A DNA stretch of 40,003 nt from the IMG/VR virus record IMGVR_UViG_3300045988_056140; one strand, 5' to 3'. The notes beneath the pieces were generated by a model. It did no database searches and was not told the origin of the DNA. It saw nothing but the letters and a program-made list of their open reading frames with translations. The first letter of the stretch is position 1, and each line of letters begins with the position of its first letter. The translations under genes were made by a program, and so were the position numbers. Source of the DNA: a virus. Below, one piece after another: positions 4,585-40,003 of the stretch.

Positions 4585-5091
4585 TCAATCCTTTCTTTTT
4601 GAGTTTCTTTTATTATTCGCTTGTTCTTTTATTGAAGCCCATCTAATATTTCCAGGCTCATAGTTCCCGTCCACATTTATTCTGTCAATCGTATAACCAG
4701 ATTCGTTAAAGTGCGGAAGAATAGAAACATAGTCATAAAATGCTTGAAAGTCATTCACCCATTCGGCACAAACTCTGATTCCGCGTCCACCATAATTGGG
4801 GAAGTCTTTGCAATGTGGATGGTTACATCGCCTTTTCATTCCCGCCCAAGTACGAAATGTCTTTGTATGCGATAGCCCATGCGTAACATGATTTCCCTTT
4901 TTGGACACTTCGATAAAAAGGCAACCACAAGACCTTGTGTTTCCACTGTGCAAAGCGTTTAGCGGAACAAGTGTTTTGTTCCCACATTCGCATTCACACT
5001 CCCATAGCGCGTGTCCGTGTTTATCTTTTCCAACACGCTTCACGGCAGTAAGCCGACCAAACTTCTGACCGGCAATGTCTTTGTATCTCAT
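4585..5091 (-). CDS. DNA-binding protein with Cys cluster and AP2/HNH-associated C-terminal domain
   Basis: 168 aa with GRLTAV...WECECECGNKTLV...SCGC followed by YGGRGIRVCAEW...IDRINVDGNYEPGNIRWASIKEQANN. Common phage family, annotated variously. Assignment from memory. Confidence 0.55.
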   Translation of the reverse strand: MRYKDIAGQKFGRLTAVKRVGKDKHGHALWECECECGNKTLVPLNALHSGNTRSCGCLFIEVSKKGNHVTHGLSHTKTFRTWAGMKRRCNHPHCKDFPNYGGRGIRVCAEWVNDFQAFYDYVSILPHFNESGYTIDRINVDGNYEPGNIRWASIKEQANNKRNSKRKD

Positions 5092-8991: not shown

Positions 8992-9240
8992 ATGATTTGC
9001 CCAAAATGCGGAAGCGAAAATGTCACTATCTCGATGCAGCAGGTGGCAGGGAAAACCAAAAAGCACGGTGTTGGATTTGGCGGCCACATGAACAATGCGG
9101 CCAGAGGGCTGACCGCTGTTTGCACACTGGGTATGTCAAACTTGGTATGGAAAAAGTCAAAGGGAACGGAAAAGACAAAGTTTGAAAACCAGAAGGTTTG
9201 CCTTTGCCAGAACTGCGGCAGTTCGTGGACAATCGAATAA
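8992..9240 (+). CDS. Zinc-ribbon protein, moron-like (own promoter and terminator)
   Basis: 82 aa, CPKCGS...CQNCGSS flanking a hydrophobic core GLTAVCTLGMSNLVW. AAAAGGAG RBS. Confidence 0.7.
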   Translation: MICPKCGSENVTISMQQVAGKTKKHGVGFGGHMNNAARGLTAVCTLGMSNLVWKKSKGTEKTKFENQKVCLCQNCGSSWTIE

Positions 9241-9257
9241 ATCAGCATAAAAAAAGA

Positions 9258-9281
9258 GGGGAAGGCCGTGAAGCCTTCCCC
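9258..9281. terminator. Bidirectional terminator between convergent genes
   Basis: GGGGAAGGC (9258-9266) pairs with GCCTTCCCC (9273-9281). An A-run lies upstream and a T-rich tract downstream. Confidence 0.75.
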
Positions 9282-9285
9282 TTTC

Positions 9286-11064
9286 TTATGTGATGAATGA
9301 AATGTCGATTGGCAGCCATGTGTTGTTTGGAGCGTCAGCCCATGCAGAGCCGTTTCTATACCGGGCGAAACGCACAAGCCCCGCAGCAGTAACGGTGCAA
9401 AGCCAAATTGCCGTTCCGCTGCCCTGACAAATGAAATTGCCCTGTATTTCCGGCCTGTACCCATCCGGCAGTGTTGTGATGGTCACATTGTCCGTGCCGC
9501 CCGTCAAGGTTGCCTTCGGCGTGACAACGCCCTTCAAATAGACAACGCCGCCGACCTTTCTATATCGCAATGTGTTTCCAGCGTTTGCGGCGTATGTTTC
9601 AAAGTCGCTTGTGAGCTTTGCCGTTATCCATCCGGGATTTGCTGTTATCTCATACCCGTTGCGGAAGATGACCGGAAGGCCAAATTCAATGCCTTCCGCA
9701 AGCTCTGACACCTTGCCAAAGGCAAGGCCGCGCCCGGAAGCATTGAAGTCCAGCAGCGTGAAGGCCGTGGGTATCTCCACGGTTTTCCTGATTGTGGTGA
9801 AATAATCTGTCACCGATAGCCTGACATCATAGGCAGAATCAACATTCAAGTCGGCGGCGGTTATCAGCGTGGTTGACAGGGTGTACCCTGTGCCCTCTTT
9901 CAGCTTTATCCATGTGCTTGATGCCCTTGCTTTATATTCCAAAACATATTTGCTTGTGTTTTGATTTGAGACGGGGGAGATATTGAATCCAAAGCCAATT
10001 TTGCCGTGCGTACCGTCATAGTTTTCCGTACCGTCTGCCAAGCATCGCACAGCAGATACGCCACGGATGACCGGTGCGGCGTATGCAATGACCGTCAGCG
10101 TTTTGGTTGTCTTGGCTGTGCGTCCTCTGCTGTCTGTGACGGTGACTGTCACGGCCTTTGTTCCGCTGGACAGTGTGCCGGTGATGGGAGCTGCCCCGGA
10201 ATAAGTCTTTCCGTCCACGGTGGTCTTGTACGCCTTGATGGTGGAGCCGTAAGCCCCAGCCGCCACAATGCCGATCTTGACCTTCGATTTTCCCTGCACA
10301 AATGCGCCAAAATTCGCGGCAAGGCCGGAAACCGTTTCCGTCATGGAAACGGCTGAAATGGTAGGTACAACAGCAGCCGGGACGCTGGCCTTGAAGGAAA
10401 CCGTCTTTGTGCCTATCAGCGTACTGCCGTTGTAGGTCTTACAGGTGATGGTGCAAGTGCCGGATGTTCCGGAAGGAATCTGACTTGCAAGGGAAAGCGG
10501 AACATCCCACGCTTTGCTCGTTCCAAGGCCGCTGCCAATAGTCCCGGTTGCGTTGCCGAACTTAAACGTCAGCGTGTGCGTGAAGGCGCTTGCCGCCCTC
10601 GGCATATTGATTGTGATACTTGATCCCATGTTGACGCTGCTTGCTGACAGCGTGGGCGTGGTTGCCCGTGGGATCGTGTCAAATGTGCCGCTGCCGGTTG
10701 CCGTAACATCGCCATAGTATGTGCCGCCCAGCGTGACCTTGATCCCGATGGTAGACGCAAAAGCACAAGCCTTGCTTCCGTCTGCGTTATGTGCTACGGT
10801 AACGGTTTTTGTGAATAGCGTTTTCGTCTGATTGCCGGACAGCGCCGCAGAAAACGAAAATGTGTATTTCGTCCCGTTGATGGTCAGACTGCCGCTTTTG
10901 CTTGCGCTGCTGTTGATGGTGTAGCTTGCGCCGGTGGAAACAAGCTGCACCTTGACCGTGACACTGGATGTGTTGTTTGCCACGGACTGACTGCCAACTG
11001 TCCAAACGATTTTCATTTGATAGCCTGTCCGGATCGCCTTTGTGATCGTTCCTGTTTTCGCCAT
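9286..11064 (-). CDS. Receptor-binding/tail fibre protein A (DUF859-like core, beta-rich C-terminal head)
   Basis: About 592 aa, last gene of the tail operon. It shares the core IPRAT.P...PRA.S.FTHTLT...GSTLIGT...TDSRG with the paralog at 13353-15287. Start at ATG 11064 (AAGGTGGG RBS). The track start is GTG 11073. Confidence 0.75.
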   Translation of the reverse strand: MAKTGTITKAIRTGYQMKIVWTVGSQSVANNTSSVTVKVQLVSTGASYTINSSASKSGSLTINGTKYTFSFSAALSGNQTKTLFTKTVTVAHNADGSKACAFASTIGIKVTLGGTYYGDVTATGSGTFDTIPRATTPTLSASSVNMGSSITINMPRAASAFTHTLTFKFGNATGTIGSGLGTSKAWDVPLSLASQIPSGTSGTCTITCKTYNGSTLIGTKTVSFKASVPAAVVPTISAVSMTETVSGLAANFGAFVQGKSKVKIGIVAAGAYGSTIKAYKTTVDGKTYSGAAPITGTLSSGTKAVTVTVTDSRGRTAKTTKTLTVIAYAAPVIRGVSAVRCLADGTENYDGTHGKIGFGFNISPVSNQNTSKYVLEYKARASSTWIKLKEGTGYTLSTTLITAADLNVDSAYDVRLSVTDYFTTIRKTVEIPTAFTLLDFNASGRGLAFGKVSELAEGIEFGLPVIFRNGYEITANPGWITAKLTSDFETYAANAGNTLRYRKVGGVVYLKGVVTPKATLTGGTDNVTITTLPDGYRPEIQGNFICQGSGTAIWLCTVTAAGLVRFARYRNGSAWADAPNNTWLPIDISFIT

Positions 11065-11065
11065 A

Positions 11066-12676
11066 TCAACCACCCACCTTCTTGAAGCTCAAATTGTTAT
11101 TTGCCCTTGGAATAAAAGCAAAGTTCCCAAGCTGAAGGGAATGGAGAAAATGGCCGTCTGTCACATACAGCTTATTGTCTGAGAAATAAGCCACTTCAAC
11201 AGCGTCCTGAAGGAAAGATATGCGGTCATTGCTGATCTTCAATTCCAGCTCATTTCCGACCTGTCCCAGCAGAATTGAGCCGTCCACAAATCGGATGTAT
11301 TTGCGGATTTCTTCAAACTCTGCATCTGCACCCGCTGCCACAGCATCAATGTCAGCGCTGAATTGATTGAACTGGATTTCCACGCTTTCCTTCGTCTGCT
11401 CGATCTCCGTACTGACAGAGGAAACAAGCGCGTCCGTCTGATCCTTCAGGTAGTAGTTTTCAGCTACAACGGATTTGATGTTTTCCTCTGACACCTGCAA
11501 GGATGCAAGCAAATTCTGCTCCACGTTGTAAATGGCCGTAGAAGCCGTTTTGGACGCATTTTCTATTTGCAGTATAATTTCACTCTGCGCCCCGGAAATG
11601 CCTGCCAGTGCCCCGGAAATGCCCAAAAACACCCCGCCAAGCGTCAGTTTGTTTGCTCCCGGTTCCAGCAGCTTCAAAGACAGCTTTGAAACAAGGAAAT
11701 TCTGATCTATTCCGTGGGGCGTGCTTTCCACCTTGACATAAGTTCCAAGGTGAAAGCTGCTGAAGGAAGCATTCACGGTGGCCAGGTCAGCCGCCGTCAG
11801 GTCAATGGTTTCAGACTGGTTGACAAGATTGGCCAAATGTGCATTGGCTTTGGTCAGCAGGTTTGCCGCTTCTGTAACATCGTCCCATGTGTGCGTTGCG
11901 AAAATAAGGCCGTACTTGTCAGCGGATTCTTCGTCAACGATATAATCAAGGCCATCATTGACAGAAGCGATTGTCAGGCGGTTGTCTGTGTCTTTACCTT
12001 CATCGTCCTTCAGCTTTGCGCCCAGCGGGATCAGCGCCGTTGCAATGTCCGTGCCTTTCCTGATCCGCTTTAGGTCAAGCAGATTCTTCCCGAAGGTGAT
12101 CTTCTGCGGAGAAAGCAGCGTGAAGTCTTGCAGATAGTCAATATAGTTGATATAGCCTTCATGCCGGATGACGATATAGCCGCCCAGCAGGTCAATCAGC
12201 TTCTTTTGCAGCTCTGTCCATGTATCAACATAGTCGATGTTTGACCGGACGATATAATCATTCGGATCAGTGACTGTGACATTTCCAACGGTGAACCATT
12301 TCGATTCCTCTACCTGCGCATTGTGGTTATCTATCAGCAGGTTAAGAAAACCGGCCACCGTCCCGGAATAGTCGTATGGCCTTTGAATGCTGTCCAAAAG
12401 GAAGGCAAGCTCACCCTCACAGGCAATGCGCTTTTCGTTGTGGAAGCCGATTTCATCATCAAGCACACGCCCACGGAATATCAAATAGTCATCTTGATAA
12501 ACCGTGATGATCGACCGCAGCTTTTTTATGGCGTTGTACTGTGGATGATCGGGATAAACTGTGAATAAGAAGCTGCCGGTCTTGTTCAACTCCAATTCCA
12601 CGGAAGGACTGAATATTTTCAGGCTTTCCAGGTTGCTGTTATACAGCGTCAGGCCGTCGCAATATACCCTGTACAT
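11066..12676 (-). CDS. Tail-associated protein Tal-A (prophage tail endopeptidase-type N-domain plus coiled-coil extension)
   Basis: 536 aa, MYRVYCDGLTLYNSNLESLKIF...FRGRVLDDE.... It follows Dit-A with a 1-nt gap. Homologous to 15292-17460 at both N- and C-termini. Confidence 0.8.
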   Translation of the reverse strand: MYRVYCDGLTLYNSNLESLKIFSPSVELELNKTGSFLFTVYPDHPQYNAIKKLRSIITVYQDDYLIFRGRVLDDEIGFHNEKRIACEGELAFLLDSIQRPYDYSGTVAGFLNLLIDNHNAQVEESKWFTVGNVTVTDPNDYIVRSNIDYVDTWTELQKKLIDLLGGYIVIRHEGYINYIDYLQDFTLLSPQKITFGKNLLDLKRIRKGTDIATALIPLGAKLKDDEGKDTDNRLTIASVNDGLDYIVDEESADKYGLIFATHTWDDVTEAANLLTKANAHLANLVNQSETIDLTAADLATVNASFSSFHLGTYVKVESTPHGIDQNFLVSKLSLKLLEPGANKLTLGGVFLGISGALAGISGAQSEIILQIENASKTASTAIYNVEQNLLASLQVSEENIKSVVAENYYLKDQTDALVSSVSTEIEQTKESVEIQFNQFSADIDAVAAGADAEFEEIRKYIRFVDGSILLGQVGNELELKISNDRISFLQDAVEVAYFSDNKLYVTDGHFLHSLQLGNFAFIPRANNNLSFKKVGG

Positions 12677-12677
12677 A

Positions 12678-13325
12678 TCACAACCCCGCTTCCTGATAAG
12701 AAAAGGAAATGGTTCCTTCTCCCGTCACGGAAACGCTATTGTTTCCGGCCTTCAATTCCAGTTCTGGAAGGGTATAGCTGCCGCTGCCCAAATCCCAAAT
12801 ATTGTATGTGTCGTATACAATGTGCAGAGGGTTTTCGGCGTTAATCACCACTTCCGGCACAACACGCTTGCGGAGATTGGGCAGGGAAAGGGTGCTTTCG
12901 CCGCTGACGGCCTGCGTGATAACCGTTTTTGCCGCTTTGTACTTCCACGGCTCACAATCACAATCCACGCCAATTTTTCCGATGTTCTTTTCGCTGGTAA
13001 ACGCAGATACAAAGCACCTTCCGACATAGTAAAAAAGCGGATCATCATCAATGACGATCCGCATTTTTTTACCATGTATTGCGTTTTTGATGGTTGAAAA
13101 CAGTGTAAGGAATTCACTTTGTGGCACGATGGTTGAAAACTGAAATTTGTGGGTGCAGTCCTCATATTTCGGCTCACCAAAATAATCCGTCAGATCAATA
13201 GACCCGTCTGCACCTTCCACATCAATTTTCACTGCCTTTGTTTTCGGGGCTGCAATCTCTTTTGAAGTCAGTATCAAGCTAAAATCATCATAGCTGTGAT
13301 ATGTTCCAAAAGTGACCCCTTTCAT
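12678..13325 (-). CDS. Distal tail protein Dit-A
   Basis: 215 aa, Sipho_tail-like: MKGVTFGTYHSYDDFSLILTSKEI...DVEGADGSIDLTDYFGEPKY...CDCEPWKYK. Confidence 0.8.
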   Translation of the reverse strand: MKGVTFGTYHSYDDFSLILTSKEIAAPKTKAVKIDVEGADGSIDLTDYFGEPKYEDCTHKFQFSTIVPQSEFLTLFSTIKNAIHGKKMRIVIDDDPLFYYVGRCFVSAFTSEKNIGKIGVDCDCEPWKYKAAKTVITQAVSGESTLSLPNLRKRVVPEVVINAENPLHIVYDTYNIWDLGSGSYTLPELELKAGNNSVSVTGEGTISFSYQEAGL

Positions 13326-13352
13326 TTTGCACCGCCTTTCTTGATTTGATTT

Positions 13353-15287
13353 TTATGCCGTTCGTTTCCAAGTGTAAACCGCCAGATACGGCGGCATGTT
13401 GTTGTGGGGATTTCCTCCGCCTTTTAGTGTTCCTGCCGGATACATTTCCCCTCCGTTCCAATCTTTCCACCCTCTATTAAAATTGCCCGTTGATGCAAAA
13501 GCGTTCTTACCTAAATACAACGTATTACTACGGTAACTGCTATCATTTGATGCATTATCAGCCAGTTCTTGGTACATTCTTCCTTGCATCAAGTGATTTC
13601 CGTGGCTTGGCATCTCTCCTACTGTAAGCGTGTGCTTTTCCTCGCCGCCGGTGCTGCCCGCCGCATGCTTCGCGCCCGCCGCCAGTAAAAACACGTCCTC
13701 CAGCCGCTCCCACGTCCCGCCGAAAAGCTCTGCGGGGCTGGTCGGATCAGCCGAAATGTAAACTTTACCCACAGGCAGAAAAATGTCCACCAACGCGGCT
13801 TTAAGGGTTGTCAAATCGCCCACAAACAAATCTCCGTCTATCCTGACATTTTTTTCAAAATTTGAGTCCCATGCAACGTCAAGCCGTTTTTCCGTGCCCA
13901 CATGGGCGCGGCGGCCAACGCCCACGGAGTTTCCGCCCTCTCCCAAGTCTACAGTTGCCTCGGATGTGGGTACAGCAAAAGACAGCGTTCCGCCGGATTC
14001 GCCCAGCTTGTCTACCGCCCGCAGCTCAATGGTATACGGGGATTCCACCGCCAGCGTTATCCCCGCAATGATACCGGCATAGTTATCTCCGCTTGCGCTT
14101 TCGGCAAAAAACGTGACCCAAGCAGACCATTCGCCAGATTCCGCTTTGTATCTGGCTTGCACGGATGCGGCGTTGTTGCCGTCCAATCTGGAGTACTTGC
14201 GGCTGCAAGCCACATAAAGCGCTGTGCCGTCATCGTCCAGTGTGCCATCAGCAAGAGCACGGGCGCAAACAAGAGCGTCTGCGGTGGTATTGCGCTCCAC
14301 AGAGGGCGGCGTGTAAGCCAACACCGTGATAGAGGCGCTGGCCGTGCCGATGATGCCTCGGCTGTCGGTGGCCGTGCCGGTGATTGGCAGCGTTCCAGGC
14401 GTCGCCAGAATCTCCGTGGTGGGTGCCTGCCCTGTGTAGGTCTGCCCGTCCACTGTTGCGGCATAGGATTTGATGGTTGCGCCATATTTGCCGCTGGCGG
14501 TGTGGGTGATCTTGGCCTTGGTGCGCCCTTGGATGTACAGCCCATTAAACGGCGCCGCCAAAGAGCTGACGGGCGACACGGCGAGGGTGTCGCTGGGCTG
14601 CGTGGTGCTGTTGCTGGGCACCGTGGCAGTAAATGTGACCGCCTGTGTGCCTATGAGGGTGCTGCCGCTGTAGGACTTGCATGTCAGCGTACCCGTGCCG
14701 GTGGCGCTGTTGGGGATCTGCGCGGCAAGGTCATAGGGCACCGCCCATTGCGCTTCTGCGCCCGCGCCCTCGGCAATGGTGCCGGAGGCTAAGCCGAAAG
14801 TATAGGTCAGCGTGTGGGTAAAACTCGACACCGCACGGGGCAGGCCGATGGGCACGGTTTGCCCCATGACCACCGCGCCAATTACCGGCACGGTAGCGCG
14901 GGGGATGGTGGGCAGCGCAAAGCTCTGCGCCGCCGCCGTGGCCGTCAGATAGCCGCTGTCCTTCCACACCTGCCCGCTGAAGGCCGCCACCGTGAAGGTC
15001 TTGCTGCCGTCCGAATCGTGGGCGATGGTCAGGGTGCCGGAAGCGAGGGTGCGTTCCTTGTAGTCGGTGATGTTGGAGTACGTCCCACCGGCGTACACCG
15101 TCACGCCATTGATGGCAACGGCGGACATTTTTACAGCGTTGGAATAGAACTGATGCCCAGGTGTAATGCCGCACGACCAGCTGATGGTGGATTTATTGCC
15201 GGCAATATCCTGACCGGCCAGCTCCCATTTCACCCAGAAATAGGAGTCATATACTGTGGTTGTTTTTACGATACCGATAGATGCCAT
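13353..15287 (-). CDS. Receptor-binding/tail fibre protein B (DUF859-like core plus tail-collar-like C-terminus)
   Basis: 644 aa with the same core motifs as RBP-A. The C-terminus HTLTVGEMPSHGNH...GGGNPHNNMPPYLAVYTWKRT resembles the phage tail-collar domain. Confidence 0.78.
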   Translation of the reverse strand: MASIGIVKTTTVYDSYFWVKWELAGQDIAGNKSTISWSCGITPGHQFYSNAVKMSAVAINGVTVYAGGTYSNITDYKERTLASGTLTIAHDSDGSKTFTVAAFSGQVWKDSGYLTATAAAQSFALPTIPRATVPVIGAVVMGQTVPIGLPRAVSSFTHTLTYTFGLASGTIAEGAGAEAQWAVPYDLAAQIPNSATGTGTLTCKSYSGSTLIGTQAVTFTATVPSNSTTQPSDTLAVSPVSSLAAPFNGLYIQGRTKAKITHTASGKYGATIKSYAATVDGQTYTGQAPTTEILATPGTLPITGTATDSRGIIGTASASITVLAYTPPSVERNTTADALVCARALADGTLDDDGTALYVACSRKYSRLDGNNAASVQARYKAESGEWSAWVTFFAESASGDNYAGIIAGITLAVESPYTIELRAVDKLGESGGTLSFAVPTSEATVDLGEGGNSVGVGRRAHVGTEKRLDVAWDSNFEKNVRIDGDLFVGDLTTLKAALVDIFLPVGKVYISADPTSPAELFGGTWERLEDVFLLAAGAKHAAGSTGGEEKHTLTVGEMPSHGNHLMQGRMYQELADNASNDSSYRSNTLYLGKNAFASTGNFNRGWKDWNGGEMYPAGTLKGGGNPHNNMPPYLAVYTWKRTA

Positions 15288-15291
15288 GTTA

Positions 15292-17460
15292 TCACCGTCC
15301 TGCCCATCTGATTGTAATGCCCTTTTTTGTGCTCATCTCGTAGCCGCCAAGATTCATGGCGCTCAACACAACAGCTTCTTTAATGTGCAGCTTTTGGCCG
15401 GAAAAATAGCTGATCTCATTTCCGTTGCCGTCGTAAAACGACAGTTTTCCAGCCGTAAAACGGGCAAAAGCCGAGAATTTTAAGTCGTCCTTTGTCTGCC
15501 CGACCTCCACGCCATATATGGGGTTTTGATTCTCATCCTCCGCGATCTTTCCGGTTTTGATGTAACCCTCGGTGGCCGTCACCTTGGCGGTAACGTCTTT
15601 GACTTGCCCGTCAATGCTTTTTACGGTTTCTTCCACCGACTTGATCTCGGTGTATTGCTGTGTAATGGCCTGCGAGTTGACCTCAATGTTTCCCTCGGTC
15701 GATTGCTTAAAAGTGTTAAATTCCGATTTCTCAGTGTAGGTTTCGGCCACGGCCAACTTGAATTTATCCACTTCCTGTGACAGTTCTGTGACCGCTGTGC
15801 GCGTTTCTGTCACAAGCGGCTTTGCGCTCTCGGTCATGGCCTTGCTGATGCAGTAAGCGCCGGTGTATGCCGTTTGCCCATCGGAGTAGGTGATTTTTGT
15901 GCGGCTCCACAAATAGTGTCCGTCCGTGATGTCGGGTGCGGTGCTTTGCCATGTTCCGCCGGACAACTCTGTGTCAGATGTCGACAGGTAGTATTCTACC
16001 GTGGTTTCCACCACGGACACACCGGCAGCACCCGGGTCACCCTTGCTGCCAGGTGCACCGTCTTTTCCGACAATGCGGATAGGCGTACTCCATGTGCCAG
16101 CCGTAGCAGATGCAGCCACCTTCTGCGACATCCACACCACGGCGGAGGTCAGATCGGTATGCCAGCCGCCCTCTGAGCCGTCGCCCGTGGGCACTGCGGG
16201 GGTGTCTGTGCCGTCATGGTAGGTGATCCACACAGACGCGCCAGCAGGTCCTGGGGTAAGCTCTATGTCCTCAATTTTTTTTGACAGATCTACACGGACG
16301 TTTGCAATACCCTCCGTCACTGTCTTTGCAGCGTCGAGTTGAGATCCGGTATAGGTGCGCCGCGTAGTGCCCATTGTGATTTGAGTGTTGCCCGGATTGA
16401 GGATGTCGGGGGACAGTTCCATAAGCGGGTAGGACGCGCTGTAGCCGTGGGGTGTGCTGGCCAGCATGGTCATGCGGCCAACTCTAAAATGTTGCACTGT
16501 ATCCTGCCATCCCAGATCCACAGCCTTACAGGTGATGGTTTCCGGCATAGACAGCCCGCTGTCGAGCAATACAGATGCCGCTTTTGTCCTTAAATTTGCG
16601 GCAATCGTCACATCGTCCCATTTGATATGCCGGGTAATGCGCCCATATGTGGCCACGCCAGACTTGCTATAGATGATTTTACCGGACTTCACCAAGTCAT
16701 CCGTCAAGTCACCGTCCGGCAGATTCCAGATGGTCAGGCCGTCCTTGCCCTCCGGGAGAATAGCAGTGTAAATGTCCGCACCGTCCGTCTCGCTGGACAG
16801 GTCAAGAAGATTTTCGGCGAATTCCACCGTCTGCGTGTTTGTCAGCGGCAGCGCGGCGTAATAGTCCAAATAATTGCCGTCATCTTCGTAACGAATCAGC
16901 AGATTCCCGCCCAGGGAAGATTTGAACAGCTTATCGGAAATAGTGGTCATCGCCGTGGCGTACTCCTCGGAGCTGCGGGTAATATAATTGTTCGGGTCGG
17001 ACACGGTGACCACGCCGGGCTTGATCTGCTGCTCTGCGGTCACCTGCGCATTGTGCTGTGACAGAATCCAGCGGAAGAAAAACTCCACCACATTTCCGCT
17101 TGCGGCGGCGGCCTTATAGGCAGCATCCTCCGCAAAGTCATCCGGGAAAATGAACGGTGGTATGATGCTGTCATTCAGCACCGCCATAATGCCCTCTGTT
17201 TCGATTTTGTGCGCACCGTAGAAATCTTTTATATCGCTGGTTATTCTTCCCCTATATATGGGGAAAGTGCCGTCCAGCAGCTCCACAAGGCCGCTCATGC
17301 GGCGCAGATTGCTTAAATAGGGATGTTCTGCGTCCACCGTAAAGGACATTTCCCCGGCCTTGCTGACCGCCAGCTTCACAGAGGGGTCACGGACGATTAG
17401 TTTTTCATCCGCAAGGCGCGGGTCATACAGAATATAGTTTTTGTATTTGAGTTGATACAT
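15292..17460 (-). CDS. Tail-associated protein Tal-B (with short collagen-like stretch)
   Basis: 722 aa, MYQLKYKNYILYDPRLADEKLIV...YRGRITSDI..., with GKDGAPGSKGDPGAAG. TAATG overlap with the Dit-B stop. Confidence 0.8.
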   Translation of the reverse strand: MYQLKYKNYILYDPRLADEKLIVRDPSVKLAVSKAGEMSFTVDAEHPYLSNLRRMSGLVELLDGTFPIYRGRITSDIKDFYGAHKIETEGIMAVLNDSIIPPFIFPDDFAEDAAYKAAAASGNVVEFFFRWILSQHNAQVTAEQQIKPGVVTVSDPNNYITRSSEEYATAMTTISDKLFKSSLGGNLLIRYEDDGNYLDYYAALPLTNTQTVEFAENLLDLSSETDGADIYTAILPEGKDGLTIWNLPDGDLTDDLVKSGKIIYSKSGVATYGRITRHIKWDDVTIAANLRTKAASVLLDSGLSMPETITCKAVDLGWQDTVQHFRVGRMTMLASTPHGYSASYPLMELSPDILNPGNTQITMGTTRRTYTGSQLDAAKTVTEGIANVRVDLSKKIEDIELTPGPAGASVWITYHDGTDTPAVPTGDGSEGGWHTDLTSAVVWMSQKVAASATAGTWSTPIRIVGKDGAPGSKGDPGAAGVSVVETTVEYYLSTSDTELSGGTWQSTAPDITDGHYLWSRTKITYSDGQTAYTGAYCISKAMTESAKPLVTETRTAVTELSQEVDKFKLAVAETYTEKSEFNTFKQSTEGNIEVNSQAITQQYTEIKSVEETVKSIDGQVKDVTAKVTATEGYIKTGKIAEDENQNPIYGVEVGQTKDDLKFSAFARFTAGKLSFYDGNGNEISYFSGQKLHIKEAVVLSAMNLGGYEMSTKKGITIRWAGR

Positions 17461-18125
17461 TACAGGCTCGCCTCCTGATATGTAACCGTGATACTGCCGG
17501 TGCCGCTGGCGATTTTAGCTTTCAGAATGTTGTTGCCAGCCGCAAGACGGATAGCGGGCAGAATGTGATCTCCCGCGCTGATGTTGATTGTGCTGCTTCC
17601 CCAAAGCAAGGTGGTGTCCTGGGTCACCGTGATGGCGGGAATCACCGGGCGGCTTTCATTCGGAAGCGAAAGTTGCTTATAGGCCGTCCCCAAGTCAGAG
17701 CGGGACACCGTTGTTCTCTCGTTCTTGTATTTCCACGGATCGCAATCAACAGTAACAGGGATCGTCTGCTTTATTTTGTTAAGCTTAACGTCACCGGCAG
17801 AACACCGCCCACTGTAATAGTGAGCGGTGTCCTCGGAAAATTTCACTTTGACACGCTTCCCATGTACGGTGTTGCAGAAATCGGAGATTGCGGAAGGCCA
17901 ATCTTTCCCATTTAATGAGGGAACGCCGATAAGTTCAAGTTTGATAGTACGGTTTTTATAGGTGGCTTCTCCGGTCAGTGCATCGGAAGCGTCAAGCAGA
18001 CCGTCCCGACCCGGAACATCAATCATATTCGTGCGGACTTCCGGCAGAGATATGGACTTACTTGCAAGCAGCAGGCCATATTCTGCGTAGGTGTCTTTTC
18101 CGTCAAAAAATACTTTTCCCATCAT
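17460..18125 (-). CDS. Distal tail protein Dit-B
   Basis: 221 aa, ...MIDVPGRDGLLDASDALTGEATY...VDCDPWKYK. The start overlaps the stop of the second tape-measure gene. Confidence 0.8.
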   Translation of the reverse strand: MMGKVFFDGKDTYAEYGLLLASKSISLPEVRTNMIDVPGRDGLLDASDALTGEATYKNRTIKLELIGVPSLNGKDWPSAISDFCNTVHGKRVKVKFSEDTAHYYSGRCSAGDVKLNKIKQTIPVTVDCDPWKYKNERTTVSRSDLGTAYKQLSLPNESRPVIPAITVTQDTTLLWGSSTINISAGDHILPAIRLAAGNNILKAKIASGTGSITVTYQEASL

Positions 18126-19831
18126 ACGACCCTCGCCCTCCTTGCATTGATTTTGGCCAGTTCTTCATCCATGCCTGGTGCAAGCAAACCGACAACCTGG
18201 CCGCTGTCCATGATGACTTTCATATTTGCCAACATAGGCAAATACTGTTCCAGCAGCATTACAATTCTGCCGGAATCGCTGCCACCGCTTGTGCTTGCTG
18301 CTCCGTAAGAGCCACTTGTATAGTTTCTGCTGATGTTTGCATCTGCCGTAATAGTGCCAGCGTCAAAGCTCATGTTGCCTTCGATGTCCTTTTTCACCGA
18401 TGAAAATTCATCGCTAAACCCTTCGCCCAAGCCTTCAGCCATAAAGCCGCCGATACCGGCGAACACTTTAGACGGGGAGTGGATGCCCAAGAAATCCTTA
18501 ACTCCACCTACAATTCCACCGAAAAAGTCTTTTACTTTTCCAATAACCCACGAACCCATGTTTTTGATGCCGTTCCAAAGTCCTTCGACTATGTTTTTGC
18601 CGACATCGAAGATTGCCGGGATGCCGTTGATGATCCCTTTCACGATAGACGAAATGATTTGCGGGATTTTTGATACCAAATTCGGTATGGCGCGGATCAG
18701 ACCGCTCGCAAGTGCAGCAATAAGCCTGATTCCACCTTCAATCAGTTTCGGCAAGTTGTCAATCAGCTTATCGACTATGACATCAACCATTTCCAGCACA
18801 CAGTCAATCAGCATATCGATGTTGTCAAGGATGCCGCTTACAAGCGCAATGATTAAATCCATGCCAGCAGCAACAATGCTTGGTAGGTTTTCAAGCAAAA
18901 TCTGGACTGCCATCGGAATGATCGTTTGGGACGCTTCTGTTATGAGTTGCGTAAGCCCTTGGATGATGATATTTATGCGCGGAATGATATTTTCGCCAAC
19001 AGCAACAAGACTATCGACAAAATTGGTAGTCAGCTCCTTGAAGTTCGCATTATCATCCGCAATACCAACAAGCAGGTTTTGCCATGCGCCCTTCATGGAC
19101 GCAACAGAACCTTGGATCGTGCTTGCCGCTTCGTTTGCCGCGTACCCCTGCATTCCGACCATTTCGATGTAATCGACAAGAGCGCTTTGGCAATCCGCAA
19201 GGTTTTCAATCTGGTATGCTGTGGCACGTCCATTTGCCGCGTTCCACTCGTTTACCTTGTCAATAACTTCCTGAAAGCCCTCTTTCGTGGGCGTGATACC
19301 GATTTGCAGGTTGTCCAGCATGGTATAGTTGGACTTCATGATTCCGTTGAAAGCATTCTGCACGGCTTCCTGAGAATTGCCGGTTGCTGCCACAACGTCT
19401 GCTTCCGCATTGATGATCCTGTCGGCAAGCTCTGCCGCCGCCTGTTCATTCCCGCCAAGCGCCGTTTTCAGACCAGTGGCAAAGCCGTTCACCTGCTGCA
19501 AGTATTCATTCTGGCTCATTTGCACGGTGCTGTATGCGTTCTTCGCCTTCTCTGCGATAAAGTCATAGGCTTCGCCAAACATCAGTTTTGCGCCGCCTAC
19601 AAGCTGCTCATAGTCCGCATACGCAGACAGCGCTTGCTTGCCGACAGCCACAACAGCAGCACCACCCGCAGCAACGGCAGCAGCACCGATCTTTCCCATC
19701 GTGCTTAACAGTTTAGAGCCTTTCCGCTCTGCGTGTTCTGTGGTTTCATTGATTTCGTTTTTTGCTTCATCCGACCCGGAAATAGCAATTTTGCCAAGTA
19801 GCTTAAAAATTTCCAAGTGACCTTCACCCAC
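18122..19831 (-). CDS. Tape measure protein 2
   Basis: About 565-569 aa. N-terminus (L)EIFKLLGKIAISGSDEAKNEINET, long helical/hydrophobic middle, GIHSPSKVF motif, C-terminus VIMDSGQVVGLLAPGMDEELA. Starts at GTG 19831 or, more likely, TTG 19816, which is the homologous position to the TMP-1 start. Confidence 0.75.
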   Translation of the reverse strand: MGEGHLEIFKLLGKIAISGSDEAKNEINETTEHAERKGSKLLSTMGKIGAAAVAAGGAAVVAVGKQALSAYADYEQLVGGAKLMFGEAYDFIAEKAKNAYSTVQMSQNEYLQQVNGFATGLKTALGGNEQAAAELADRIINAEADVVAATGNSQEAVQNAFNGIMKSNYTMLDNLQIGITPTKEGFQEVIDKVNEWNAANGRATAYQIENLADCQSALVDYIEMVGMQGYAANEAASTIQGSVASMKGAWQNLLVGIADDNANFKELTTNFVDSLVAVGENIIPRINIIIQGLTQLITEASQTIIPMAVQILLENLPSIVAAGMDLIIALVSGILDNIDMLIDCVLEMVDVIVDKLIDNLPKLIEGGIRLIAALASGLIRAIPNLVSKIPQIISSIVKGIINGIPAIFDVGKNIVEGLWNGIKNMGSWVIGKVKDFFGGIVGGVKDFLGIHSPSKVFAGIGGFMAEGLGEGFSDEFSSVKKDIEGNMSFDAGTITADANISRNYTSGSYGAASTSGGSDSGRIVMLLEQYLPMLANMKVIMDSGQVVGLLAPGMDEELAKINARRARVV

Positions 19832-19852
19832 TTTCTGTGAAGATAAAATAAA

Positions 19853-19878
19853 AGAAGGCCACCGGAAAGCAGCCTTCT
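19853..19878 (-). terminator. Hairpin/attenuator between the two tape-measure genes
   Basis: Minus-strand RNA AGAAGGC-UGCUUUCCGGUG-GCCUUCU, extendable through G-U pairs to a UUCC tetraloop, followed by UUUAUUUUAU. The 5' arm overlaps the TMP-1 stop codon. Confidence 0.45.
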
Positions 19879-21616
19879 ATCGTGTGTTTCCTCTTTGTGT
19901 GTTTCTCAACCTATCCGACAACCGCATATCTATTTCGGGTGTCAATTCTCCGACTAATACGCCGGAATCCAGCATAACGCCGTGTGGCATAGACCGAGCC
20001 AAAAAGTCAATCAGGATTTGGTTTTGCTCAATCAGCGTCTTTCTGATTCCTTCGTTTTCCAGCATGACAGCAGTCCGGACATAATCAAGCAGCGTGTCAA
20101 TGGGCGCGATGGCTTCCTTTCCGGCTTCGCCACCACCAAGCAGCGTGTTTCCGATGCTGCCGAAGATGGTAGGCCGGTCAAGGATGCCGCCTTCAGCGTT
20201 CCACTTGACGTTGAAGTTCGGCAGCTTACCCTTGCCAGCAATACCGAAAGGCGCTTTGCCGCCGCTGACAGAGATTTTCGGGATTTTCAGGTTGCTGAAA
20301 ATCTTGCCAATGCTCAACGGGAAAAAGCCCTTGATTTTATCAATGGCTTTCTTCACAGCGTCACGCGCCCCCTCGATCTTGTCAGCAATAGCGTCCTTGA
20401 TATTGCCAAACGTGTTCTTTACCCTTGATACAACATCCTTCAGGTCGTTGAACTTGCTCTTGATCCACTTGACCGCAGAAGAAGTAGCGGACTTGATCTT
20501 TTCCCACATTTTCAGCCAGAAGTTGCGGAAGCCCTCATTGTTCTTCCAAAGGTACACAAAAGCCGCCACAAGGCCGATGATAAGCGACACGATCAGGCCG
20601 ATGATATTTGCCCTCATAGCCAGATTCAACGCTTTCACGCCGCCTGTGACCAGCTTCAGGGCAGTTGTGGCCTTGCCCATGATGCTCCCCCACTTCAGCA
20701 CAAGGACAAACCCGGATACCGTGACCGTGGCGGCAAGGATGCCAGCCGCCCACGCTTGCACGGTGCTTTTGTTCTGCTTGAACCATTTGATCATGTCCTT
20801 TATTTTGGTGATAAAGGATTGAAGCAATGGCACAGCAGCGGCCACCATTTCGGCAGTCTTATTCTTGATAGCGGTCAAAATCGGCTCACCAACACGCCCC
20901 AGTTCCGCAAAGGCACTCGACAGTTTTTCGTTTGCTCTATTCGCCGCCATAACATCGGCGTTGGTTTCCTTGTACTGATCCGATGCCTTTTTATAAGTGC
21001 TGTTCAGCGTGTCCATGATAAGCTTCTGACGCTCCTGCTCGGTGCTGCAAGCGTCAAGCTTTGCCTGAAATTCCTCTTCGCCGATGCCAGCCCAATTCAG
21101 CGCATCAACAAGACCGCCTGTGAGCTGTCCGGTCTTTGCCGTTTCGTTGGCCGCTTCTGTCAAGCCCTCAATAGGCAAGCTATCACCGAATGTCGCAAAA
21201 ACGCCGGTGCAGATGTCCGTCCATGTCTGCAAATCCTTTTCGTTGTCGGTCATCACCGCCAAATGGTTTGCCGCTTCAACAGATACATCAGTATCACCCA
21301 AAACGGCCTGTAAATCCTGATAGGTTTTCTTCGCCGCTTCGGAAGAATGGCCGTTCGTGACAAAAGCTGTGTCCAGCTTGCCCATTTCCGTTCTATATTC
21401 TCTGGAACCCTCAATAGCTGCTACCCACGCGCCGCCTAACGCCACACCAGCGGACAAAACAGCCTTTCCGATTTTCAGTGCCGATTCACCAATCTTCTTG
21501 AAGGAAGCATCTGTTTTCTTGCTTCCCTTATCCGCTGTTGACGCAGTTTCTTCAATGGCTTGCTTTGCCTGTGCGTTATCAACGGCAATCGTTCCTAACA
21601 GCTTGAAAAGTTCCAT
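19877..21616 (-). CDS. Tape measure protein 1
   Basis: 579 aa. N-terminus MELFKLLGTIAVDNAQAKQAIEET, TM-like segments, GGGEAGKEAIAPIDTL, C-terminus VMLDSGVLVGELTPEIDMRLS. GGGAGGG RBS. Follows the G/G-T chaperones. Confidence 0.85.
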   Translation of the reverse strand: MELFKLLGTIAVDNAQAKQAIEETASTADKGSKKTDASFKKIGESALKIGKAVLSAGVALGGAWVAAIEGSREYRTEMGKLDTAFVTNGHSSEAAKKTYQDLQAVLGDTDVSVEAANHLAVMTDNEKDLQTWTDICTGVFATFGDSLPIEGLTEAANETAKTGQLTGGLVDALNWAGIGEEEFQAKLDACSTEQERQKLIMDTLNSTYKKASDQYKETNADVMAANRANEKLSSAFAELGRVGEPILTAIKNKTAEMVAAAVPLLQSFITKIKDMIKWFKQNKSTVQAWAAGILAATVTVSGFVLVLKWGSIMGKATTALKLVTGGVKALNLAMRANIIGLIVSLIIGLVAAFVYLWKNNEGFRNFWLKMWEKIKSATSSAVKWIKSKFNDLKDVVSRVKNTFGNIKDAIADKIEGARDAVKKAIDKIKGFFPLSIGKIFSNLKIPKISVSGGKAPFGIAGKGKLPNFNVKWNAEGGILDRPTIFGSIGNTLLGGGEAGKEAIAPIDTLLDYVRTAVMLENEGIRKTLIEQNQILIDFLARSMPHGVMLDSGVLVGELTPEIDMRLSDRLRNTQRGNTR

Positions 21617-21660
21617 GTTGTTCCCTCCCTAAATTGATAGGGCAGGGTAGGGGCTGCAAC

Positions 21661-22415
21661 TCATTCTTCTTGTGGCACGAATGATGTTATTTCCATAGAA
21701 TGCTTGACGATTTCGACCAGCTCTTTCTTGCTTGTCGTTTTAGGTTCTGGGCGGCTGCTCTGATTTGTCGCGTCAACGAATTCCGCATAAGAGCGCTCAA
21801 AATCCTTGTGCAGCCAGTATTCCCACATGGCCTTTTCTTCCTGTTCCTCATTTCGTATGCGGACAACCGTGCTGATGAACTCATACAGCCGCCCGGTCTT
21901 TGCCATCTGATCCAACAAAATCATTGGATTTGCATACCGCTGAAACAGAACATCGAAGAATTGAATATCGCCTACTTGAACAACTTTACAGCTTCCTGAA
22001 AAAAATCTGCAAACTCCTTTTTCTTCACAAGGTCAACGACCATGCTTGTGAAGGTCATTACCGGGAGCTTTGCAATGTCGGCGGCCTTCATGCCGGACAA
22101 ATTGGACAGCAGCGCATAGATGTCATTTTTGCATTTGCCGATGTTCGCCATCAGGATTGCGGCGATGTCCAGAGCCACAGAAATGCCGACAGATGTAAGG
22201 TCGTTGCTGTTGTCGGCAGCTTCTTCCTTTTCGTCCTTCTTCGCCATGCTCTTAACAGCGGCCTTGACATCATCGGATGCAAAACAAGCCTTGAACTCCT
22301 TGATGCCGATTTTGCTGACGATGCTTACAAGCACAAACAAATCATCAGCCTGGAGGTCTCGCAGCGCATAGGTTTTTTCGATGTTTTCAGGCATTTTACA
22401 TAACCACACTTTCAA
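21661..22415 (-). CDS. Tail assembly chaperone G-T fusion (programmed -1 frameshift product, about 251 aa)
   Basis: The -1 frame is open from well upstream of the G stop down to 21661. The track ORF 21661-21924 is its distal part. Shift site T_TTT_TTT at 22005-21999. Confidence 0.65.
21972..22415 (-). CDS. Tail assembly chaperone G
   Basis: ORF of about 140-147 aa between the major tail protein and TMP, carrying a slippery heptamer near its 3' end. The start is uncertain (TTG 22415 or ATG 22394). Confidence 0.75.
   Translation of the reverse strand: MKVWLCKMPENIEKTYALRDLQADDLFVLVSIVSKIGIKEFKACFASDDVKAAVKSMAKKDEKEEAADNSNDLTSVGISVALDIAAILMANIGKCKNDIYALLSNLSGMKAADIAKLPVMTFTSMVVDLVKKKEFADFFQEAVKLFK
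21999..22005 (-). promoter_or_regulatory. -1 ribosomal frameshift slippery heptamer U_UUU_UUU
   Basis: The G-frame codons gat ttt ttt put the 7-T run in X_XXY_YYZ phase, 9 codons before the G stop. Confidence 0.65.
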
Positions 22416-22438
22416 TTATTTTTGCATTTAGTGCAAAT

Positions 22439-22475
22439 AAGGGCAGAACCACTTACATTTTGTGATTCTGCCCTT
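22439..22475 (-). terminator. 10-bp stem-loop after the major tail gene (possible attenuator)
   Basis: AAGGGCAGAA pairs with TTCTGCCCTT around a 17-nt loop. The downstream U-tract is weak. Confidence 0.35.
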
Positions 22476-22480
22476 ACAGA

Positions 22481-23068
22481 TCAGATTTCGGATGCCTTCG
22501 GGTAGTAGATATGCCAAGGCAGCTTCTCCAGGTCGCTGGTCAGGTCTGCGTGGCACTCGAATGTGTACTTGCCGACAGCGCCTTCCTTGTTCTTGCCTTC
22601 CGGCTCAAAGCCGGACGTACAAAGTGCGTTTTCCATAATGGCAATGATGTTTTTACCTTCCAGCGTCTTGCCGACAAAGGCGATATTCTCCCAGTAGTCA
22701 CCCTCGGAAATGTTTGCCTTCGGTTCGATCACATCATAGTTGGCTGCATCCTCGGACGTGCCGTCTGTGCCGATGGTAGCGGCCTTGATAATGTCCTTGG
22801 TTAGCTCAATGAAGTTGATTTCCATTTTTCCCGTCTCGCCGGTCTTGACCTCCAGCCCCTTGGCCTTCACCAGTGCGCCGTCAACCTCGATGTTGGTAAT
22901 CTCCGGCACGATGGACAGCTTGGAGCCGCCGGAAGTGGCACCAACAATGGTGCTGTCAAAGTTCCATGCGTTGCTGGTATACTTCAGACCCTTGTGGATC
23001 GTACCAGCACCGAACATGATATTCTTGGGGGTATTGGCAGATACGCCGGTCTTGCCCTCTTTGCTCAT
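22481..23068 (-). CDS. Major tail (tube) protein
   Basis: 195 aa, MSKEGKTGVSANTPKNIMFGAGTIHKGLKY...VKAKGLEVKTGETGKMEINFIE. Position upstream of the chaperones. phi13-like family from memory. Confidence 0.8.
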   Translation of the reverse strand: MSKEGKTGVSANTPKNIMFGAGTIHKGLKYTSNAWNFDSTIVGATSGGSKLSIVPEITNIEVDGALVKAKGLEVKTGETGKMEINFIELTKDIIKAATIGTDGTSEDAANYDVIEPKANISEGDYWENIAFVGKTLEGKNIIAIMENALCTSGFEPEGKNKEGAVGKYTFECHADLTSDLEKLPWHIYYPKASEI

Positions 23069-23069
23069 A

Positions 23070-23453
23070 TCAGCTCACCTTCCATTCCTTGCATTGTAGA
23101 TTGATTTGGATTTTCTTCAGTTCTTCGTCCCCGGTCGGGACGATCAGAGAACTGCCATAGAAAACGGCCACGGCTGAACCATCGTCAACCATGACCGTCT
23201 TGCCATATACCTTGTTGAAATAGTTCTCGATCTTCGCTTTTGCATTTTCCAGTGTCAGCCATGTGCCACGGCTGAAGCCTGACAGCATGAAGGTCGTTTC
23301 CTGCAAGCCGTCCTCTGTCATAGGCTCTGTTTCCGTGTACTCACCGACAAAATAGGGGTATACAATCGGCTCCTTGGTGTATTCGCCGAATTCGTATTCA
23401 AGCCCCAATTCTGTCATGCCGTCTGACACGACTTTCAGCAGATTTTTAGACAT
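23070..23453 (-). CDS. Tail terminator/tail completion protein
   Basis: 127-aa ORF between the HK97-gp10-like protein and the major tail protein (synteny). Confidence 0.6.
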   Translation of the reverse strand: MSKNLLKVVSDGMTELGLEYEFGEYTKEPIVYPYFVGEYTETEPMTEDGLQETTFMLSGFSRGTWLTLENAKAKIENYFNKVYGKTVMVDDGSAVAVFYGSSLIVPTGDEELKKIQINLQCKEWKVS

Positions 23454-23932
23454 TAGTCATCAAACCTCGCTTTGAAGATTTGTTCAGCCCTTCGGATGAT
23501 CTTGTTCTTGTTTTGGTCAAATGCGGTTTGCAGCATCCGAACAGGCTTTTTTCCGTTCGTCTTGTAGAACTTCTGGCCGTCCTTGCCATACACGATGATG
23601 ACTTGGCCGTTGAATGTCGGCTTTTTCTTACCTGTGACCTTTTCAACAGGGACATACCATGCGCCAACACGACCATTGCGCTTCAACGCCCATTCACCGG
23701 TTCCCAGCTCCATCCAGATAGCATTTTCCAGAGGACTTCCAACAACAGCTTCACCCTTGGATTCATCGACATTTGCAGCCCACGATCCTTTAAGCTGGCC
23801 TTGGTCAACAGGCGTGTTTCTTGCCGTGGCTGACACAAGTTCCGCAGACGCTTCCAGCAGAAACGCGCCGACAGCATCATCAATGGCTCTGTTTACCTGA
23901 ACATGGTTGTCAATAAATTCAATGTCTGCCAT
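23453..23932 (-). CDS. HK97 gp10-family head-tail joining protein
   Basis: 159 aa, ...ARNTPVDQGQLKGSWA..., characteristic of the HK97 gp10 family. Confidence 0.7.
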   Translation of the reverse strand: MADIEFIDNHVQVNRAIDDAVGAFLLEASAELVSATARNTPVDQGQLKGSWAANVDESKGEAVVGSPLENAIWMELGTGEWALKRNGRVGAWYVPVEKVTGKKKPTFNGQVIIVYGKDGQKFYKTNGKKPVRMLQTAFDQNKNKIIRRAEQIFKARFDD

Positions 23933-26529: not shown

Positions 26530-26564
26530 AAAAAACCATATCCGTGATGTCACGAAAATGGTTT
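26530..26564 (-). terminator. Terminator after the endolysin gene
   Basis: Minus RNA AAACCAU-UUU-CGUG-ACAU-CACG-GAU-AUGGUUU followed by UUUC. The 5' arm overlaps the endolysin stop. Confidence 0.5.
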
Positions 26565-39778: not shown

Positions 39779-40003
39779 TCAGAACGGCAGATCACTGTCA
39801 TCTTCGTCAATCTCTGTGAAGCCCTGCGCCGGTTCCGCATAGCTGCCGGAATCGCTCTGCTTCTTGCTTTCACAGAATTCGTGGTGTTCGACAATGATTT
39901 CAGTCACATAGACCTTTTTGCCGTCCTTGTCATCATAGGTTCTTGTCTGAATACGGCCTTCAAGGGCAATCTTCATGCCTTTGTGAAGGTATCTTTGGCA
40001 GAA
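39779..40003 (-). CDS. ssb: Single-stranded DNA-binding protein, 3' part (39885-40003 duplicates 1-119)
   Basis: ...MKIALEGRIQTRTYDDKDGKKVYVTEIIVEHHEFCES...FTEIDEDDSDLPF, with the acidic SSB C-terminal tail. Confidence 0.9.
   Translation of the reverse strand, partial: FCQRYLHKGMKIALEGRIQTRTYDDKDGKKVYVTEIIVEHHEFCESKKQSDSGSYAEPAQGFTEIDEDDSDLPF
39885..40003. repeat. Exact 119-bp direct repeat, copy 2 (identical to 1..119)
   Basis: See copy 1. Confidence 0.95.

Follow-up and report, generated by a model that had tools for sequence, protein, structure and literature searches.

The virus record IMGVR_UViG_3300045988_056140 from IMG/VR, whose whole stretch of 40,003 nucleotides is referred to as the window, encodes between positions 9,286 and 21,616 two tape-measure proteins (TMP-1 and TMP-2) and two groups of tail-tip proteins, each comprising a distal tail protein (Dit), a Tal protein and a predicted receptor-binding protein (RBP). 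The genes are nested, with TMP-1 on one side and Dit-A, Tal-A and RBP-A on the other side of an inner cassette of TMP-2, Dit-B, Tal-B and RBP-B. Sequence comparison with relatives indicates that this two-set layout is an old, clade-wide feature, the inner cassette of which has been replaced repeatedly. We consider the chances about even that the two sets form two independent tail initiator complexes and thereby give, from shared parts, two virion types, one with a constant and one with a swappable tip.

Clade-wide layout and exchange of the inner cassette

Relatives were collected by searching IMG/VR with TMP-1 and Tal-A and by searching 185,579 species-representative genomes with a TMP-1 profile, which yielded 172 loci (cited by L numbers) onto which the proteins of the window and a set of cassette seeds were mapped; counts refer to non-redundant relatives. 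Among 73 non-redundant TMP-1 homologues (47–100% identical), tblastn placed a second TMP about 50 nt after TMP-1 in 59 of the 65 with enough downstream sequence, while the remaining six carry a long open reading frame (ORF) followed by a Dit in the same place. A Dit-A homologue, where present, lies 4.2–8.8 kb downstream of TMP-1 (48/48), and in none of these 48 relatives does TMP-1 stand directly before Dit-A as in a single set. An earlier note on this sequence had proposed that a block of ~6.5 kb was inserted between TMP-1 and Dit-A; the nested layout is real, but a one-off insertion is contradicted by the presence of two sets in all 48 relatives. Relatives with only one set, which the same note had hoped would define the insertion boundaries, are absent from the TMP-1 clade, and single-set phages were found outside it.

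All inner cassettes examined consist of a TMP, a Dit, a Tal and a fibre gene and belong to at least three families: the B type of this genome (Dit of 221 aa, phrog_3558 Tal), the L006/L016 type (Dit of 272–293 aa, phrog_538 Tal of 321–670 aa, fibre proteins) and the L031 type (Dit of 139–142 aa, phrog_3558 Tal). Over all inner cassettes, the Dit ranges from 139 to 293 aa and the Tal from 321 to 932 aa. At least four different inner cassettes occur among genomes whose TMP-1 and Tal-A are ≥90% identical to those of this phage. The most variable inner-cassette gene is RBP-B, which within the B type is 32–52% identical where Dit-B is 86–92% identical, RBP-A meanwhile being 93–99% identical.

In two loci (L056, 11781–13397, and L128, 3916–5535), the second TMP is a TMP-1 paralogue of 538 aa (58–59% identical) that precedes an L031-type Dit, so the slot can also be filled by a duplicated TMP-1. 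In L133/L134 (9995–12989) and L136–L139, the Tal-A homologue was matched as two pieces ~1.2–1.4 kb apart, so that Tal could be interrupted there by an additional domain, by an intein or intron, or by a mobile gene.

The loci derive from human, sheep and water-buffalo gut. Matches among the species-representative genomes are metagenome-assembled genomes (MAGs), mostly of Clostridia, Oscillospiraceae and Acutalibacteraceae, and their inconsistent bin taxonomy places the host only roughly. In INPHARED, a DNA search gave only two faecal contigs, both unannotated, and a protein search a single full-length match.

Tape-measure ends and candidate partners

By the motif in their last 45 residues, the TMPs can be sorted into three classes, and these track the type of Dit and Tal encoded directly after the TMP. 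Class I (..LDSGxLVGxLxPxxDxxL..RG) occurs with Dit-A, Dit-B or an L031-type Dit, each then followed by a phrog_3558 Tal, class II (..NNREFARLVKAV) with an L006-type Dit (16 cases by regular expression, 17 by eye), and class III (..AAYFEQARWAI or ..RNAVDDWRWRG) with an L016-type Dit (12 cases). The match between class and Dit persists where the TMP body is of another family: in L006 and L034 the body is 62–77% identical to TMP-2, yet these proteins carry a class II end and precede an L006-type Dit. Whichever cassette neighbours it, TMP-1 always belongs to class I: of 40 non-redundant cases, 38 fit the motif pattern and two variants were assigned by eye. The sole TMP before a Dit-A-like gene in L140 and L143 is of class I too.

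The first 25 residues (ELFKLLGTIAIDNxxANxAIDET) are common to the two TMPs of a genome in 30 of 33 such pairs, and the median identity of paired TMPs amounts to 48% over this segment compared with 21% over the rest. In L001, where both the chaperones and the tube protein are different ones, a TMP-2-like body of 75% identity carries a different N-terminus. The TMP of phage 80alpha interacts through residues 1–37 with the tail completion protein and through its C-terminal helices with Tal (10.1101/2024.12.10.627806). Read by analogy with 80alpha, the pattern at the TMP ends fits a shared head-proximal partner and a separate docking of each TMP into its own hub. From these motifs we infer that TMP-1 would pair with Dit-A and Tal-A, and the second TMP with the inner Dit and Tal. 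With a C-terminal class that tracks Dit and Tal and an N-terminus that is shared, the comparative data are consistent with the two cognate initiator sets suggested in the earlier note.

The lengths of the TMPs also differ, with 575–703 aa for TMP-1 before a second TMP and 538–1207 aa for the second TMP, a mismatch that is hard to reconcile with both proteins spanning one tail lumen. At 1.5 Å per residue, tails of this phage are estimated at ~87 nm (TMP-1) and ~85 nm (TMP-2). The largest length mismatch seen was that of L146 (9992–15884), with TMPs of 582 and 1207 aa, for which tails of ~87 and ~181 nm would be predicted; among the relatives it is the best suited to reveal two tail lengths.

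The eight tail-tip genes

The eight genes are intact minus-strand ORFs separated by gaps of 0–45 nt (Table 1), and their coordinates and profile matches confirmed the order TMP-1, TMP-2, Dit-B, Tal-B, RBP-B, Dit-A, Tal-A, RBP-A described earlier, as well as the ATGA overlap (4 nt) of TMP-2 and Dit-B. Each TMP matches more than ten PHROG tape-measure families, including phrog_58 (3e-33 for TMP-1 and 7e-48 for TMP-2), phrog_991 and phrog_3981, and the assignment of TMP-2 as a tape-measure homologue thereby held up in a profile search. Searching with TMP-1 by tblastn gave matches to genes annotated as tape measures in S. thermophilus, C. perfringens and other phages, and to gp14 of Listeria phage P35. 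TMP-1 follows the tail assembly chaperones (G/G-T) but precedes TMP-2, and TMP-2 precedes Dit-B but follows TMP-1. TMP-2, for which the TTG at 19816 chosen by gene callers is likely the real start, carries the shared N-terminal motif in the form EIFKLLGKIAI together with a class I C-terminus.

Both Dit proteins match phrog_33, annotated as distal tail protein Dit, in the PHROG profiles. When an AlphaFold model of Dit-A (predicted local distance difference test score 79.7) was compared by fold with PDB structures, the best matches included the Dit proteins of SPP1 (2x8k, E = 1e-8), TP901-1, p2 and 80alpha, as well as chains in the NF5 baseplate, monocin tip (9j1k_K) and mycobacteriophage Douge baseplate entries, whereas a PDB sequence search with Dit-A, Tal-A and RBP-A gave no match. 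The two-domain Dit fold, with a tube-like N-domain and a galectin-like C-domain, is thus supported for Dit-A by its model and for Dit-B through its identity to Dit-A. Tal-A and, with 37.8 bits, Tal-B match PF06605 above the Pfam gathering cut-off of 31.3 bits, and each Tal ORF begins at, or at most 2 nt from, the stop codon of its own Dit. RBP-A and RBP-B both match PF05895 (DUF859) and phrog_372 (tail protein); the C-terminal domain of RBP-A matches phrog_7127 (receptor binding tail protein) and is unlike the Gp10_C-type domain of RBP-B. These domain matches, the differing C-terminal domains and the position after Tal mark both as predicted receptor-binding proteins.

Likeness and origin of the two sets

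Comparison of the paralogues by BLASTP revealed 33% identity over the full length of Dit-A and Dit-B (2e-38), 32% over the N-terminal 420 aa of Tal-A and Tal-B (1e-49) with an additional weak C-terminal match, and 36% over 470 aa of RBP-A and RBP-B (3e-72), while between TMP-1 and TMP-2 only a 21-aa C-terminal motif aligns (E = 0.02). The claim that each pair is clearly homologous consequently stands for Dit, Tal and RBP and not for the TMPs, which are alike only at their two ends; their N-terminal motif was seen by eye and in the family comparison, and they otherwise represent different TMP families.

At the DNA level, the best direct repeat between the sets (9000–22500) measures 49 nt at 73% identity and lies between the two RBP paralogues, and the longest inverted repeat in the same region measures 28 nt at 71%. 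In the absence of a longer DNA-level repeat, the sets are taken to be old or xenologous, and a recent tandem duplication is ruled out by this absence together with the protein identities of 32–36%. An invertible switch of the Mu G/P1 C type is excluded as well, there being no long inverted repeats and all eight genes lying on one strand. A diversity-generating retroelement (DGR) was rejected in the absence of a template/variable repeat pair in 9000–22500 and of a reverse transcriptase among the scanned ORFs of the genome, a scan that left out some small ORFs. The repeat search agrees with the earlier suggestion that the proposed device would differ from invertible fibre segments and DGRs.

Base composition is uneven over the tip genes, with a G+C content of 0.63 at 14001–15000 (the DUF859 part of RBP-B) against ~0.48 in the flanks, and 0.56 in both RBP-A and the C-terminal part of Tal-B, which fits a mosaic origin of these genes. 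Ratios of non-synonymous to synonymous substitution rates (dN/dS, Table 1) point to purifying selection on both sets.

At least 23 contigs show an identical layout, and the assemblies behind them (SPAdes, MEGAHIT and Logan) come from different samples. Two of the contigs, L003 (39,939 bases) and L005 (39,936 bases), are as long as the whole genome. All eight genes keep their order in L003 and in L004 (31,224 bases), and L005 is a circularly permuted version that starts inside RBP-B. The exact Dit-A protein is recorded in 46 assembly-collection blocks, in 37 of which the longest carrying contig measures 20–50 kb. An assembly chimera of two related phages, a concern raised by the earlier note for what is a metagenomic sequence, has a practically negligible probability: the contig is circular with a 119-nt overlap, identical junctions recur in these contigs from many samples and three pipelines, and dozens of IMG/VR and MAG contigs show the same layout with other sequences.

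Single-set phages

Outside the clade, each set type appears from gene content to be sufficient alone. In L001 (MT836707), the sole TMP, 75% identical to TMP-2, sits directly after a chaperone-sized ORF and is followed by a Dit-B-like (81%) and a Tal-B-like gene (81%) and no further set, in a tail module that is otherwise unrelated. The nearest single-set phages to the clade, L140, L141 and L143, have a tube protein of 47–66% identity and one TMP, of a different TMP family, directly followed by Dit-A-like (~50%) and Tal-A-like (~63%) genes. In L155–L172, one TMP of 737–1208 aa, the N-terminal 350–440 residues of which are 35–65% identical to TMP-1, precedes one Dit, one Tal and one DUF859 protein. 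Each TMP family hence takes the canonical place after the chaperones and before Dit in single-set relatives, and since each serves as sole TMP elsewhere, both are genuine, complete tape measures. Together with the full N- and C-terminal motifs, this substantiates the earlier statement that both TMPs are complete and rules out that they are two halves of one TMP.

Expression signals

A terminator-like hairpin follows TMP-1 in 27 of 33 non-redundant relatives, with stems of differing sequence; among the other ORF ends of these loci, 58 of 687 have one. TTG is the start codon of the second TMP in 18 of 30 non-redundant cases, and TMP-1 uses ATG (20) or GTG (7) and never TTG. A small second hairpin spans the Shine-Dalgarno sequence of TMP-2. 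These conserved RNA signals lead us to infer that the production of TMP-1 exceeds that of the second TMP and of all tip proteins. A promoter scan gave 18 sites against 13.8 ± 3.8 in shuffled sequence, i.e. no excess, and was not used. Plausible homology arms for cassette exchange are, upstream, the hairpin together with the leader and the codons of the shared N-terminus and, downstream, Dit-A.

Genome context

The first and last 119 bases of the contig are identical, and the record thus represents a circularly closed genome of 39,884 bp and no fragment of a larger record. Its gene content is that of a temperate siphophage, with a serine integrase and repressors in the lysogeny region and, according to profile scans of the window proteins, early genes for RecT, a RecE-like exonuclease and a methyltransferase. 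The late operon on the minus strand encodes the small and large terminase, portal, minor head protein, scaffold, major head protein and adaptors.

The tail completion protein, the sole such gene in the circular genome, is by analogy with 80alpha the likely shared partner of both TMP N-termini. A single tube protein is common to both sets, no second tube protein gene having been found in profile scans of the genome proteins. The chaperone pair is single as well. A T_TTT_TTT slippery heptamer lies at 22005..21999 (−) in the correct frame, inside the overlap of the G ORF with the −1 frame, and the latter is open past the end of G and runs on into an 87-aa ORF. This site is expected to mediate the G/G-T frameshift, with one chaperone pair serving two TMPs.

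The head module harbours an endolysin/amidase-like gene (phrog_435, phrog_7698; 26563–27420, −), which is flanked by the genes for the minor head protein and the scaffold. Downstream of RBP-A there is no lysis cassette, and the integrase region begins within ~750 bases on the opposite strand; two ORFs of 82 and 72 aa adjoining RBP-A had no family match or fell outside the scan. Two HNH endonuclease genes on the minus strand are located between portal and minor head protein (29524–30075) and in the early region (4585–5091).

Table 1 Features of the tail-tip region and of the shared genes, with dN/dS values where calculated.
Feature	Position	Strand	dN/dS	Description
TMP-1, constant tape measure	19877..21616	-	0.07 (vs relatives)	579 aa; ATG start; GGGAGGG Shine-Dalgarno sequence; class I C-terminus (VMLDSGVLVGELTPEIDMRLS...RGNTR)
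TMP-2, inner-cassette tape measure	18122..19816	-	0.12-0.15 (vs close relatives)	564 aa from TTG at 19816; 569 aa from GTG at 19831
Dit-B, inner-cassette distal tail protein	17460..18125	-	0.10	221 aa; phrog_33 at 7e-16
Tal-B	15292..17460	-	0.09-0.28	722 aa; N-terminal Prophage_tail / phrog_3558 domain; fibre-like C-terminal extension
RBP-B	13353..15287	-		644 aa; DUF859 N-terminal part; Gp10_C-type C-terminal domain
Dit-A, constant distal tail protein	12678..13325	-	0.11	215 aa; phrog_33 at 2e-12; AlphaFold model
Tal-A, constant	11066..12676	-	0.09	536 aa; PF06605 at 65.8 bits; phrog_3558 at 4e-129
RBP-A	9286..11064	-	0.07	592 aa from ATG at 11064; alternative start at 11073; DUF859 N-terminal part
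Intrinsic-terminator-like hairpin	19843..19878	-		11-bp stem, 4-nt loop, then TTTATTTTAT; directly after TMP-1 stop codon
Strong terminator-like hairpin	9257..9282	-		late operon end after RBP-A
G / G-T tail assembly chaperone pair	21661..22415	-		phrog_1021 and frame analysis
Major tail (tube) protein	22481..23068	-	0.13 (comparison)	phrog_885 at 6e-60
Tail completion / Neck1-type protein	23453..23932	-		phrog_5 at 2.9e-11
Serine integrase	6885-8537	+		550 aa; lysogeny region
Contig ends	1-119 = 39885-40003			identical over 119 bases

Proposed mechanism and alternatives

In the mechanism that we propose, TMP-1, Dit-A, Tal-A and RBP-A would act as a constant set A, and TMP-2, Dit-B, Tal-B and RBP-B, placed in the slot between TMP-1 and Dit-A, as an exchangeable set B, both supplied from a common stock of heads, chaperones, tube protein and tail completion protein. 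The C-terminus of each TMP would dock into its own Dit/Tal hub, and the common N-terminal motif would finish the tail at the head-proximal end, so that a single infection would produce tails, and hence virions, of two kinds that differ in their receptor-binding tips; where the second TMP of a relative has another length, the tails would also be unequal in length. The relative amounts of the two TMPs are probably governed by the hairpin downstream of TMP-1 and by the weak TTG at which TMP-2 starts, and the slot would be refilled through recombination between the conserved flanks, with neither DNA inversion nor a mutagenic retroelement. A wider picture, which is quite possible though we would stop short of calling it probable, is that of a large clade of temperate gut siphophages with one genome and two tails: co-expressed sets would compete for tube, chaperones and heads, each burst would be a mixture of two virion types that recognise different receptors and often have tails of unequal length, in a ratio tuned by the terminator and the weak start, and host range would be hedged by a new means, without DNA rearrangement.

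Several observations weigh against two independent initiators. The pairing of TMP and hub rests on motif co-variation, and both TMPs of this phage are of class I, so that cross-pairing may occur here. The hairpin after TMP-1 lies upstream of both Dit/Tal sets and alone fails to explain a ratio of two initiators. No cultured relative was found, INPHARED holding unannotated metagenomic relatives only and the other genome matches being MAGs. Finally, neither set has been lost in any of the 48 members of the TMP-1 clade, and the sets could therefore depend on each other, as full independence would predict occasional loss.

In the main rival explanation, both sets would be built into one composite tip, each virion carrying both Dit rings, Tals and RBPs, for example in stacked or branched hubs, and the TMPs having different roles in a single tail. 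This arrangement would agree with the co-occurrence of the two sets in 48/48 genomes, with the several distal tail proteins in two separate rings that the Nocturne116 paper reports for some phages, and with the terminator that separates TMP-1 from everything else and hints at another dosage or role. We nevertheless regard it as unlikely. Against a constant set A, the inner cassette switches between Dit/Tal families, at least three in number and unrelated, which is not what parts needing to fit one another would lead one to expect; each cassette also brings its own TMP with a matching C-terminus, the two TMPs share the same head-proximal motif yet differ up to twofold in length, and each set type forms a complete tip in other phages.

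The unequal TMP expression suggested by the conserved hairpin and the frequent TTG (18/30) before the second TMP would also suit a phage in which only one set makes infectious tails, the other being conditional on host or regulation or forming, for example, free tail-like killing particles; TMP, Dit, Tal and RBP are the components of F-type tailocins, and among the matches of the Dit-A model is the monocin tip chain noted above. We find this rather improbable, as both sets lie in one closely packed operon with no promoter-like site or switch between them, neither TMP has lost the motif which, judging from 80alpha, completes the tail so that it can join the head, and selection is equally strong on both sets. 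A nested cassette of differing local G+C, the closest relative of which outside the clade is found in the unrelated phage L001, might finally be taken for a passenger, that is, a recombination leftover or selfish insert without function for the phage. Such a passenger would hardly be expected to have all ORFs intact with dN/dS values of 0.09–0.28, to be kept in every genome down to 47% TMP-1 identity and to carry a TMP N-terminus adapted to the resident head-proximal module, and we consider this explanation very improbable.

A clade that keeps two sets would test how initiator complexes find their partners, and the co-varying TMP ends, which can be mutated, are direct candidates for this recognition code. 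If two virion types are indeed formed, this would constitute a new route to a broad or hedged host range in the gut and would imply one phage with two receptors in the inference of phage–host networks; relatives such as L146 predict two tail lengths per lysate. Engineering might also profit, since tail tips seem to have a natural plug-in site in the slot between TMP-1 and Dit-A.

Comparison with known systems

The textbook view of siphophage tail assembly gives each genome a single tape measure and a single hub. One TMP followed by the tip genes is also what a review of Gram-positive phage adsorption draws. Compared with the canonical initiator of SPP1, p2/TP901-1 and 80alpha, the present system agrees in protein families, gene order per set, the Dit-A fold and the TMP end motifs, and differs in having two nested sets in one operon with one chaperone pair across a clade instead of one TMP and one Dit/Tal hub. 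No published dual TMP/Dit/Tal sets were found in the full-text literature, which leaves out subscription papers, and phrases such as "two tape measure" there referred to chaperones.

Two virion populations with different host-recognition proteins from one genome are described for the S/S' fibres of P1. The Mu G and P1 C segments resemble the arrangement proposed here in giving two virion populations; there, inversion swaps fibre tips, whereas here inverted repeats are lacking, whole TMP/Dit/Tal initiators are doubled and both would be expressed in the same cell. Among the scanned ORFs, no invertase was identified beside the cassettes, and the sole recombinase found was the serine integrase. 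Several RBPs on one baseplate are known from phi92, CBA120 and SP6/K1-5. Shigella phage Sf14 carries two long tail fibres. These multi-RBP phages share with the present one that more than one RBP broadens host recognition, but they place all RBPs on one hub with one TMP, while in the present phage every RBP is accompanied by a Dit, a Tal and a TMP of its own. Diversity-generating retroelements vary phage tail fibres, as in Mtd of BPP-1. The purpose would be the same, receptor specificity being varied within a lineage, with a whole-cassette swap in place of mutagenesis.

Nocturne116 has two distal tail proteins that form a hetero-hexamer, and other phages have two separate Dit rings. More than one Dit gene per genome is thus common to these phages and ours, but theirs reside in one tip with one TMP and one tip protein, whereas here each Dit is encoded with its own Tal, RBP and matching TMP. 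The parts of the system are ordinary families and the arrangement is not, combining two tape measures, two Dit/Tal/RBP hubs, one chaperone pair and an exchange slot in a form conserved throughout a clade.

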